This document shows, piece after piece, positions 21,037 through 48,094 of a stretch of DNA of 64,000 nt. The first letter of the stretch is position 1; every line of letters begins with the position of its first letter. The notes below the pieces were generated by a model. The model saw only the letters and a program-made list of their open reading frames with translations, ran no database searches and was not told the origin of the DNA. A program made the translations under genes and the position numbers. The stretch lies in contig NC_057718.1 in assembly GCF_004010195.1 (NCBI RefSeq), positions 99,229,430 to 99,293,429 on the forward strand. The letters are read 5' to 3'. This stretch comes from Chiloscyllium plagiosum (Eukaryota).

Positions 21037-21272
21037 TGAAATAACTCCGCAGAGGTTGGTATCCCGTCACCAAGTCACCCTTTATTCACACGTGCATAAT
21101 ACTAGTCATTGGTCAGGCTCCCTCAGAGCCAGCTCTCAGAATGAGCAGAATCTCTGACCCTCCTGTTTATATCTGTCAGCCAGGGCTCTCTGTTTGGACC
21201 AGATTAACAGCCCCAATCTGGGAACTCACATTCTAAGAGGTCCACCTGGCTGACCTCATTACCATCACTACA
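21037..21272 (-). mobile_element. Solo LTR (236 bp, TG..CA, 5-bp TSD GTCAT), probably Gypsy-type
   Basis: GTCAT at 21032-21036 and 21273-21277; the minus strand has GATATAAA and AATAAA; it interrupts a SINE. Homologous to 43519-44359 and 46425-47845. Confidence 0.85.
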
Positions 21273-43518: not shown

Positions 43519-44359
43519 TGAAAGATACTCCACAGAGGCCAGGTATCCCATCACCAAGTCACCCTTTATTTACACGTGAACAGTCCTCGACTTTAATACT
43601 GCCCCATTCAGAGTCAGGTACCAGAGTGTCAGCATCCCTGATACTCTTGTTTGGATCTCAAAAAGTGTGGTGCTGGAAAAGCACAGCAGGTCAGGCAGCA
43701 TCCGAGGAGCAGGAGAATCGATGTTTCGAGCATAAGCCCTTCATCAGGAATGTTGGGGAGAGGAGGTAGTGCCCAGGGGGCTGAGGGATAAATGGGAGTT
43801 GGTTGGGGGGAATGTAGCTGGGAATGCGATCGGTAGATGAAGTGATAAGTCACAGAGGAGGGTGGAGCGGATAGATGGGAAGGAAGATGGACAGATAGGA
43901 CAGTTTAAGAGGGTGGTGCCGAGTTGGAGGGTTGGATCTGACATAAGATGGGGGGAGGGGCGATGACCCTCCAACCTGGCACCCCCTCTTAAACTCTCCT
44001 ACCTGTCCATCTTCCTTCCCACTGATCTGCTCCACCCTGCCCCTGACCTAACACCCTCAACACCACCTCCATCTCCCTATCACATTCCCAGCTACCTTTC
44101 CCCCAGCCCCACCCCCGTCCCATTTGTCCCTCAGCCCCCTTGCACCCTCACATTCCTGATGAAGAGCTAATGCTTGAAACATCGATTCTCCTGCTCCTCG
44201 GATGCTGCCTGACCTGCTGTGCTTTTCCAGCACCGCATTCTTGACTCTGACCTCCAGCATCTGCAGTCCTCAGTTTTTCCTCCTGTTTCTGTCTATCAGC
44301 CAGGGCTCCCCAGTCATATCCTATGAGATCCAGCTGGCTGACCTCATTACAATTACCAC
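43519..44359 (-). mobile_element. Solo LTR (family of 21037-21272) split by an inverted PLE dimer at 43653-44279
   Basis: LTR halves match 21037-21168 and 21160-21272; the insert is flanked by CTCTTGTTT (43644-43652) / CTCCTGTTT (44280-44288). Confidence 0.85.
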
Positions 44360-45115
44360 CGAGTTAGATGAAGAAGGGTTGAAGGACCCCTTGTCACTGT
44401 AATTCTACATCAGCTGTTGACTCCTGAAATCACATGGGCTTCAGCAGTTGCTCAGTTGAAGAGTTGAAGAGACTTGAGGATTGCCCCTACTTTGCCCTCA
44501 TACCCCATACATTTCAATTCAGGCAAGCTGCAGCCACCTATCAGTGGCGTTGACCTGATGGGACCTCAGCTACTTGAGTCGAAGGCCCCCAGGGATGCCT
44601 GGAGTTTTGGAGGTTGGAGGTTCTAAGGGGATGGGAGATGCGGCTGCTCCTTCCCACTCCATGACCACGGAGCTGCGGTCCTTTCCTTTTCAGTGGACTC
44701 CAATTGGAGACTCACGCAGCCCCAGACATGGTGGCGTGAACTGACTGGAAGCAACCTCTGACACCTGTCAACAAATTTAGGATTGTGGCATAAGAAGCTC
44801 ATGTCCATGAGGTCTGTATTTACTTGTTCAGCTGCCAAGGGCAGTGTGCAGAAAGGTGTGCAGTGTTCCTAGTAGTCAGGAAGATTCCAGGGCTTGCTTA
44901 CGGCTACTGCTGCTTTACACCTGATTAAATGTAACCCTCCTGTTTCTTGAACCCTTCCTATGCTCAACATCGTCTGCCCCTGATAAACCACCATACATCG
45001 CTTCCAGATTTTAATCGGAGCTTGCTGTCTAGACTGTGAAATTATGGAGTAGCTGTCGGCCCATCAGCCCGTTGGATCACAGAGCGATTACAGCCGGGTT
45101 AAAGGCACTTCAGGC

Positions 45116-46097: not shown

Positions 46098-46537
46098 CAT
46101 CACACCTTTAATTAATTTCCCATTGAATCTGTTTCGGGTTGTCATCACAAATACCACCCCCTTCACCTCTCCTCAACACTGCCCTACATTGGCCTGACAT
46201 CCATTCTTGGGTTAACCATCACTGCCATTCTGATATGCTTGGAGTTCTTTGCTATGCATTCGCCTATATAATGTATACCATACAGCCTGTGTTCTCGTTG
46301 AGACAGGTGCCTTGATATCCATCAATAATGGTAACTATTAGAGATTAAAAACCTGTCACCTTGAATCAACAGACCTCAAAGTTTGTTTTCACAGTGGATT
46401 GTGGTGGTTTAGATTTTTTCCTGATGTTGTGGTTATAATGAGGTTGGCCAGGTGGATCACATGGCGTGTGAGATCCCTGACTGGGCCCGTTAACCTGGGC
46501 AAATCAGGGAGCCCTGGCTGACAGATATAAACAGGAG

Positions 46538-46850
46538 ACAGGGCTTCAGGGAAAGGTGGGCACCGCAGGGAGTGGAGTGCATTATTTCCCCCTTTAACTC
46601 TATTTTGATTTAATCCCTGCCCTCCCCTTCACTGTTTGATCACGTAACATTGCCCTTTGATGTGAAGGACACGGCTTATCACTGGCCACTCAGGTGTTTC
46701 CTTTCTTCCTGTTGGTGGAAACTGAATAAAGATTTTACACCTTGTGTTTCTCACTGTGTCTCACACCTGCACACACACAACATGGGTGCTGGGGGAAATA
46801 TAAGCACTACCGCAGTTAGGCGGAAGTGTGGGGGTAACAAGAAAAAAAAG
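46538..46850 (+). mobile_element. Tx1-like non-LTR retrotransposon 3' end, unit 1
   Basis: 46542-46613 encodes GFRERWAPQGVECIISPFNSILI*, resembling a Tx1-clade ORF2 C-terminus (from memory); 3' UTR and A-rich tail. Confidence 0.7.
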
Positions 46851-46885
46851 AACTATCAGGGGTTCTGAGAAAAAAGAAAAAAAAA

Positions 46886-47190
46886 GACAGGGTTTCAGGG
46901 AGAGGTGGCATGTTGGGGCGTGGAATGTTTTATTTCCCCCTCCAACTCCATTTTGATTTAATCCCTGCCCTCCCCTTCACTGTTTGATCACGCATTGCCT
47001 GTCACTGGCCACTCGGGTGGTTTGTTTCTTCCTGGTGGTGGAATATAAATAAAGATTTACGCACTTGTTGTCCTTCACTCTGTCCTACACCTGCACACAC
47101 GCTACACGGGTGCTGGGGAAAAATAAGCACAACCGCCGTTAGGCGGTGGTGTGGGGGTAAAGCAAGAGGGAAAAAAAAAGAAAAAATAAA
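46886..47190 (+). mobile_element. Tx1-like 3' end, unit 2
   Basis: Collinear with unit 1; terminal hairpins GTGCT..AGCAC and ACCGCC-GTTA-GGCGGT; A-rich tail followed by TAAACAGGAG. Confidence 0.7.
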
Positions 47191-47506
47191 TAAACAGGAG
47201 TGTCAGAGGTTCTGTTCACTCTGAGAGCTGGCTCTGAGGGGAGCTGGGTCAGTGGTGAAGGACTCTCCATTTTGTGTGAGTCTGTGCTGTCTGGACCCCA
47301 CAGCCAGTGCATCCTTCAAGGTGTTGGTCTTTCCACAAAGGAGGAGAGCTTTCCTTTTCTCTCTCTCCCTTGTTTCAGGTAGGCATTTTTGATTTTTGGT
47401 TTTCTTTATTGTTTATTGTGATTGTGTTTTTCTGGGGCTCTTTCTGCACATTTCCTTTCATTTGAGCTGTGCTCAGCTGCGCAGGCAGAAGAAAAAGAAA
47501 CAGGAG

Positions 47507-47710
47507 TCTGGTTTTCAGGGAGAGGTGGCACCATGGGGCGTGGAGTGTTTTATTTCCCCCTCCAATTGCATTTCGATTTAATCCCTACCCTCCCCTTCAC
47601 CCGTTCAATCACATGGGTATTGCCCTTGAAGAGAGGGACACTCCTTGTTCCAGGACACTGCTGTTTCTTCAGGACACATACACATACACACACATGCCAT
47701 GAGAAAAAAA
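47507..47710 (+). mobile_element. Tx1-like 3' end, unit 3 (short)
   Basis: TTTCAGGGAGAGGTGGCACC..TTTAATCCCTACCCTCCCCTTCAC; A tail followed by TATAAACAGGAG. Confidence 0.65.
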
Positions 47711-48094
47711 TATAAACAGGAGTCAGTGATTCTCCTCACTGTAGGGGCTGGCTCTGAGGTGGATGCTCACAGTCCACAACACTGTACACATGTTAATAAA
47801 GGGTGACTTGGTAATGGAGATATTGGCCTCCATGGAATAATCTCACCTGAGATTCCTTAGACTTTTCTGATGACAAAGCAAAATAAAAAAATGAACATTT
47901 TGTACTTGAAGTTAGCAAGACTCATGGATTAGATTTACTAGAGTTGAGAGTGTGGCGCTGGAAAAGCACAGCAGGTCAGGCAGCATCCGACGAGCAGGAA
48001 AATCAAAAAGCCCTTCATCAGGAAGCCTGACGATTTGATTTACTGGCTTAGTGACTGAACGATCAGCCGATCCAATTATTACCCTCAGGGTAAA

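Follow-up and report, generated by a model that had tools for sequence, protein, structure and literature searches.

Stacked Tx1-like LINE insertions at one site of a Gypsy LTR often share a 5' start and are mostly separate events

Introduction

A solo LTR that measures 236 bp when empty is 1421 bp long at one locus of the DNA stretch analysed here (64,000 nucleotides, in the following called the window). It is filled with A-tailed pieces of retroelements, and three of these begin at the same base of their element. How did this stack arise, and what fixed the common start? The common 5' junction is the most unusual feature of the stack and was absent from a preliminary description made from the letters of the window. 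The 5' joining of non-LTR retrotransposons and the reason for their frequent truncation are still poorly resolved.

Two elements of the picture are already known: some Tx1 elements of crocodilians target LTRs, and R1 copies stack up where their target has been duplicated. The crocodilian elements Tx1-8_Crp and Tx1-4_AMi prefer LTR retrotransposons, and from the same animals come reports of SINEU passengers and of transcription that may start in the target (Kojima, 2015, PMC4494074, in its accessible part). In R1 arrays of Drosophila new copies enter the target site duplication (TSD) at the 5' end of residents. There, annealing of the cDNA to the target's top strand sets the 5' joints, and target sequence at the RNA's 5' end makes them precise (Stage and Eickbush, 2009, PMC2718515, accessible text).

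Results

The filled LTR

The enlarged LTR starts with TG, ends with CA and is flanked on both sides by the TSD CCTGA. Its empty relative lies on the minus strand and has the TSD GTCAT. The preliminary description had given the two lengths and the intact CCTGA and had placed the site (T)AAACAGGAG at 46528-46537, 47191-47200, 47498-47506 and 47713-47722; on re-reading the sequence, lengths, TSD and all four sites were found as described. It had also called three A-tailed units related, and their starts at 46545, 46894 and 47514 are the same base of the element. The parts of the locus and the empty reference copy are as follows.

46420..46424, plus strand: TSD of the solo LTR, CCTGA, 5 bp
46425..46537, plus strand: 5' part of the Gypsy solo LTR, ending in the TATA-like GATATAAA (46524-46531) and the target AAACAGGAG
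46538..46544, plus strand: junction bases ACAGGGC, in register with those of the unit 2 and unit 3 junctions
46545..46851, plus strand: unit 1, 5'-truncated Tx1-like 3' end with A-rich tail
46852..46885, plus strand: short piece resembling LTR or element head, then an A-rich tract (read from the sequence)
46886..47190, plus strand: unit 2, Tx1-like 3' end of another subfamily with A-rich tail and the 5' start of unit 1
47191..47200, plus strand: target copy TAAACAGGAG
47201..47268, plus strand: LTR-like head, element-borne, closer to other heads than to the local LTR
47269..47497, plus strand: unit X, A-tailed piece of a sister subfamily's 5' UTR, incomplete on its 3' side
47498..47506, plus strand: target copy AAACAGGAG
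47507..47712, plus strand: unit 3, Tx1-like 3' end of highest divergence, A-tailed, with the same 5' start
47713..47845, plus strand: target copy and 3' remainder of the LTR, AATAAA at 47795-47800, CA end
47846..47850, plus strand: TSD CCTGA, 3' side, 5 bp
21037..21272, minus strand: solo LTR of this family without insert, TSD GTCAT, used as empty-site reference

Between the 5' part of the LTR and positions 1-113 of the empty copy, identity is 80.5%. Unit 1 starts within the final ORF2 codons (FRERWAPQGVECIISPFNSILI, then the stop); it holds the last 22 of them, with the stop at 46611-46613, and an AATAAA at 46725-46730. Unit 3 has a deletion inside the 3' UTR, and its 3' end was also found in contigs of a related organism. 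Judging from similar pieces in other stacks, 46852..46885 is probably an insert of the head type, only extremely short.

Two further DNA runs with the same organism label gave contigs which span the junctions within 47451-47563 and the segment 47570-47878. Therefore, several junctions of the stack are not assembly artefacts. No single contig from the other runs of this label crossed the whole stack. The contigs of the related organism did not bridge it either, and the order of the units could not be read from them. At 47671-47673 two other runs of the same label carry 7 extra bases, either a polymorphism or an assembly error.

The host LTR family was characterized by its surroundings. The LTR end followed by TGG had 202 matches in the genome, located before a common internal region, compared with 0 for a control pattern. 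Three two-LTR elements of 4.4-5.0 kb were found. In one of them (L302) the Pfam order was RVT_1, RT_RNaseH_2, Integrase_H2C2 and rve; these were weak matches, with only Integrase_H2C2 above its cut-off. Among the 39 pieces scanned against Pfam, 10 had any match, and six of these were to retroelement domains. By its sequence features (TG..CA LTRs, a short TSD, PBS and PPT, the order RT-RNase H-integrase) the family classifies as Ty3/Gypsy. It may resemble the Mag clade and use a tRNA-Ser primer. All copies seen were decayed.

The inserted LINE

A first look through the genome gave 3622 candidates for unit 1; the best other copies were 89-95% identical and varied in their 5' extent. The copies are truncated to variable degrees at the 5' end and have an A-rich tail and a TSD. 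For the coding part, an ORF2 piece of 916 aa (L159) aligned to Xenopus YTX2_XENLA with 51% identity over 87% of its length (877 bits). The same piece scored 202 bits with human L1 ORF2p, in an alignment running from the endonuclease through the reverse transcriptase (RT); as this score comes from another database, it is to be read as similarity only. The assignment as Tx1-like in the preliminary description was thereby upheld. RVT_1 was recognized with E=8e-33, and Exo_endo_phos with E=0.001, which is under the curated cut-off. ORF1 may carry a CCHC knuckle: at L165 there was a zf-CCHC match (E=0.0014, again under the cut-off), and a CxxCxxxxHxxxxC pattern is visible. Among named matches covering at least a third of the ORF2 query, those with the highest identity were from a ray (66%) and the horn shark (64%). 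Placed by similarity, units 1-3 are 3' ends of a Tx1-like LINE.

A preferred target in the LTR

The claim had been that a site-specific LINE targets this LTR family. Here we used two sets of copies chosen blind to their flanks, the best matches of unit 1 (28 of 29 usable) and the best matches of an RT piece (45 of 60 usable). Dropped were 14 of the 60 RT-selected loci, which lacked their own 3' end in the fetched DNA, and two flanks with N. A target was called when the motif or the 3' half of the LTR occurred within 100 nt of the 3' flank. This was the case in 14/28 copies of the unit 1 set and in 23/45 of the RT set, in total 37/73, with one miss common to both sets. Controls gave 0/36 for A-runs of the window and 3.1% for random 75-nt windows. 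When the view was widened to 1.5 kb, 41 of 73 copies had the 3' half of the LTR on their own strand, and 0 of 73 had it on the opposite strand. One sequence thus stands in more than 20% of the flanks, the level at which Kojima (2015) speaks of target specificity. The LTR side was also examined. Of 29 LTRs chosen by their 5' half and read by eye, 14 had an insert at the site, 13 were uninterrupted and two were diverged or deleted there. Truncated inserts were flanked by a duplication of AAACAGGAG plus 0-6 nt (n = 14). It is almost certain, then, that one site in this LTR family is a target of the Tx1-like LINE. Under the rule used about half of the 3' flanks were without the target; the claim of site-specificity holds as a strong preference and not in its strict form.

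Stacks are also present in the LTRs of full Gypsy elements, as would be expected if a composite LTR with LINE pieces had been spread by the Gypsy element itself. However, starts and contents of the stacks are different at every locus. Furthermore, in both informative elements among 12 fetched the 5' LTR was filled and the 3' LTR empty. The inserts therefore postdate the Gypsy insertion, and such hitchhiking is extremely improbable.

Unit X and the element heads

The fourth A-tailed unit (about 47270-47497) had been described as unrelated to the other three and as a possible 3' end of a second family. Among 29 homologues of 47262-47492, LTR positions 105-156 nearly always stand before the unit. 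Four of the homologues continue into ORF1 and ORF2; the other 25 end early. These four identify unit X as 5' UTR from a sister subfamily, hence as a 5' end of the same LINE family which is truncated on its 3' side and A-tailed, and both parts of the description had to be given up. A script flagged 23 of the 29 as A-rich at the end, and none of these had AATAAA or ATTAAA just upstream. End-calling strayed into the downstream LTR in 5 of the 29 loci, and these ends were read by eye. The short X-type copies probably derive from RNAs which were broken or tailed too early and which the same machinery inserted. As a source of unit X the sequence fits premature tailing as well as a template jump and cannot tell them apart.

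The segment in front of unit X had been taken for a repeated piece of the local LTR (47201-47269). Yet, over 47201-47268 identity to the local 3' LTR is 76.5%, compared with a median of 87.6% and a maximum of 96.3% for 20 other heads. This closer match indicated that the segment came with the element as its LTR-like head. Interpretation as a long TSD was rejected for this locus by the same comparison. Later mutation of the local LTR confounds this kind of test, and only loci with the other LTR type are informative. Local LTR copies of 32-38 bp do occur in a few loci (e.g. L180, L299).

Among the 60 RT-selected loci 9 had an LTR-type head, 11 a head consisting of the element's own 3' part, three another head and 11 a partial 5' UTR; in 26 none was in view. 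The own-3' heads contain the ORF2 end and 3' UTR and show several junction variants. In two copies they extend over at least 560 nt, and they join at unit position ~150-165, just before the AATAAA at 181-186. Downstream of the target two LTR subtypes exist which match versions of the LINE or passenger heads (seen in six loci). This suggests repeated capture of heads or co-evolution.

Could the LTR promoter drive the stack? Transcription from the TATA box would produce a local RNA, which by a template jump would act as second template for heads and shared starts. Full-length 5' ends in fact begin at the target with either an LTR-like head (9/60) or an own-3' head (11/60), and the latter joins before the poly(A) signal, as read-through would need. 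A TATA-spaced transcription start is expected roughly at +19. In loci with the other LTR type, however, head-specific bases start already 9-14 nt after CAGGAG, upstream of such a start. RNA data did not contribute to a decision. In one single-cell poly(A) run 1259 reads on a full-length copy were piled at 3' UTRs without any starts, a picture which priming at genomic A tails would also give, and a second such run had no reads on this copy. For SINEU, co-transcription from the target was proposed (PMC4494074, accessible part). We consider the promoter as driver of the stack very unlikely. Nevertheless, use of the LTR promoter is plausible and can coexist with the explanation preferred below.

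Other passengers

The preliminary description had considered that possibly two families were involved. As unit X belongs to the same family, this does not hold for the window. A second family does use the site outside of it. This family C is A-tailed, unrelated to the LINE, represented by 2154 genome candidates and absent from the 64-kb window. Reading by eye placed its end at the same target in 20-22 loci out of 25. The 5' end was seen in five long copies, all starting right at the LTR target, and four of these span ~1.8-2.0 kb. A coding LINE was ruled out, as the five long loci had no ORF of at least 200 aa and no tblastn match to Tx1 proteins. Inside the element no Rfam match was found in the three copies scanned (L295-L297), the single tRNA match lying outside; by this, family C is not a tRNA-, 5S- or 7SL-headed SINE. 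Its head is of the same type as that of X-like LINEs (LTR-like/Tx1). At ~1.9 kb it is non-coding and internally repetitive, and its use of the target is stricter than that of the LINE. Family C is a real second passenger at this target, a non-coding retroposon.

In a third LTR copy of the window (43519-44360, minus strand) the site is occupied by another element, unrelated, of ~620 nt and with inverted arms. This element is flanked by AAACAGGAG and AAACAAGAG and belongs to an abundant repeat family of the window. This repeat was also seen after the target in two other loci (L126, L198) and may be another passenger.

Shared 5' starts and the independence of stacked copies

Between loci the 5' starts of 72 motif-flanked copies ranged from -740 to +240. 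Within loci, the start was the same to within 4 nt for 33 out of 104 adjacent pairs, which came from 26 of the 57 loci, whereas 3.1% were expected by chance; loci selected by their junction are outside of this count. The remaining 71 adjacent pairs had no common start. These pair statistics leave out the self loci, L031-L060, which were re-fetched at greater length, and the identical array L115-L118. A search with the junction pattern gave 38 matches, many of them clustered with identical junctions.

Such common starts might reflect a microhomology hot spot, i.e. the local LTR resembles one point of the LINE, and truncation occurs there independently without participation of a resident. The target CAGGAGTGTCAG does resemble the LINE sequence CTGGAGTTGTTCAG at the start point of the units in the window, 8 of the 72 motif-flanked starts fall into the 20-nt bin just 5' of this point, and microhomology joints are frequent in R1 and R2 (PMC2718515, accessible text). 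But the common starts are specific for the locus, from -309 to +183, though the LTR target is similar everywhere. The chance of coincidence between loci is 3%, and rare variants are common to neighbours 20-99 nt inside the unit. A hot spot is therefore quite unlikely.

Alternatively, slippage or an unequal crossover from one TSD to another may have duplicated one insertion locally, with later divergence of the duplicates or their gene conversion by other loci. Junctions within loci are identical, as this would require. In addition, same-start partners are closer to each other than random copies (median at the 14th percentile), and 6 of 74 pairs have no diagnostic difference. A locus with four repeats of a 728-bp Tx1 3' end plus LTR remainder at ~100% identity (L115-L118, G000:C100758:28042-33383) reflects either real tandem duplication or an error of the assembly. 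Reciprocal best matches made up 4 of 105 pairs; together with the closeness of partners this means that some pairs are duplications. For the majority the data speak against it. Median identity was 0.91 within a locus, 0.90 for a typical pair from different loci and 0.95 for the best match at another locus. Same-start pairs had 384 subfamily-diagnostic differences (common-allele, non-CpG) compared with 70 expected from duplication, and 51 of 74 pairs individually deviated from duplication at p<0.05. The 3' ends were more than 15 nt apart in 46 of the 74 pairs. Units 1 and 2 of the window have 13 diagnostic differences as against 2.0 expected. They are 83% identical over 232 aligned sites, while each has a match of 89-92% elsewhere (for unit 2 the best match at another locus was 88.8%). 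The preliminary description had named local tandem duplication of a single insertion as something that would refute its view, and these differences speak against such an origin of the stack. The different 3' ends and the age polarity reported below also speak against duplication, which would require frequent conversion sparing the 5' part alone. Local duplication is thus an unlikely source of the stacks, and same-start stacked pairs are mostly separate insertions.

The sharing between neighbours is graded along the unit. Rare variants of the downstream unit recurred in the upstream unit in 13 of 44 cases at 0-19 nt, a bin which may contain target bases, in 23 of 180 at 20-99 nt and in 11 of 346 beyond 100 nt; the difference between the last two bins is significant (p=5e-5). 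The upstream unit had fewer private variants in 31 loci and the downstream unit in 12 (p=0.005).

Discussion

Proposed mechanism

We propose, with a probability of roughly 70%, that the stack consists of separate Tx1-like insertions at AAACAGGAG and that the cDNA of a newcomer pairs with the resident and copies its front end. The APE endonuclease would nick the bottom strand, likely in the T-run opposite TATAAA, as suggested by the junctions and by standard target-primed reverse transcription (TPRT); the A tail then would prime reverse transcription. Each insertion duplicates the site (AAACAGGAG plus 0-6 nt) and would leave fresh targets, and newer copies tend toward the TATA side. For the 5' joint the cDNA probably relies on homology to the sequence immediately downstream of the nick. 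When the LTR is empty, the element's own LTR-like head of ~60 nt would supply the pairing. In an occupied LTR the first bases of the resident would pair instead, and the newcomer would be cut off at the resident's start. The TSDs extend past CAGGAG by just 0-6 nt (n = 14), and a simple overhang of this size would not yield the longer stretch that neighbours share. The scheme therefore has to assume either strand invasion or a second cut whose position varies, which counts against it. Probably the same machinery inserts 3'-truncated, A-tailed 5' ends and the ~1.9-kb non-coding passenger.

In the window, unit 3 was likely first. It is likely the oldest because it is the most diverged and its 3' end is also present in the related organism. 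Units 2 and 1 would have followed on the TATA side, taking over its junction. Unit X and the short head would have entered at internal target copies. As unit X sits between units 2 and 3, this order requires insertion at an internal site, which counts against our explanation.

That a newcomer adopts the truncation point of the resident appears probable to us. We found no published description of it; a literature search covering sources other than Repbase Reports and most subscription papers gave no publication on inherited truncation points or on LTR-targeting Tx1 elements in sharks. More speculatively, one may imagine that the 5' joint of this LINE is set by whatever occupies the site, that later copies adopt the truncation point of the locus, that heads evolved to match an occupied target (the own 3' part without poly(A) signal) and that a guild of passengers uses the LTR promoter. 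As a whole this picture is tentative and may well not hold.

If this picture is true, thousands of loci would be a natural record of second-strand completion in TPRT. As the truncation point appears to be dictated by the neighbour, the homology model is open to large-scale tests, both in genomes and with engineered systems for insertion by TPRT. For the latter, truncation of the cargo is predicted upon re-insertion at an occupied site. As regards annotation, stacks of this kind mimic tandem duplications, yet they record separate insertions in rough age order.

Comparison with known systems

With Tx1L from Xenopus laevis (YTX2_XENLA), identity of ORF2 is 51% in the N-terminal 800 aa and 40% in the C-terminal part. 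The target of Tx1L is the piggyBac-type Tx1D, not an LTR. With the present LINE it shares the habit of targeting another transposon (PMC4494074, accessible part). The crocodilian Tx1 elements likewise prefer LTRs by the criterion of >20% of flanks; they belong to another animal lineage, and the accessible text makes no mention of common 5' starts (PMC4494074). The known targeting habit of Tx1 is herewith extended to a probable cartilaginous fish.

R1 resembles our system in its stacking. Its target is the 28S gene, and the target sequence it carries is from upstream of the cut, here from downstream; truncated newcomers which inherit the truncation point of a resident are not described in the accessible part of that study (PMC2718515). 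Family C looks analogous to SINEU. Both are non-coding and have head type and target in common with a Tx1 partner, but SINEU is shorter than ~500 bp with U1/U2 heads, whereas family C has ~1.9 kb and an LTR-like/Tx1 head (PMC4494074, accessible text). Finally, TART from Drosophila telomeres is telomeric and belongs to another clade; as far as the accessible description goes, it forms head-to-tail non-LTR arrays and has non-terminal repeats, in which the 11 copies carrying their own 3' part as head resemble it (PMC5537684).
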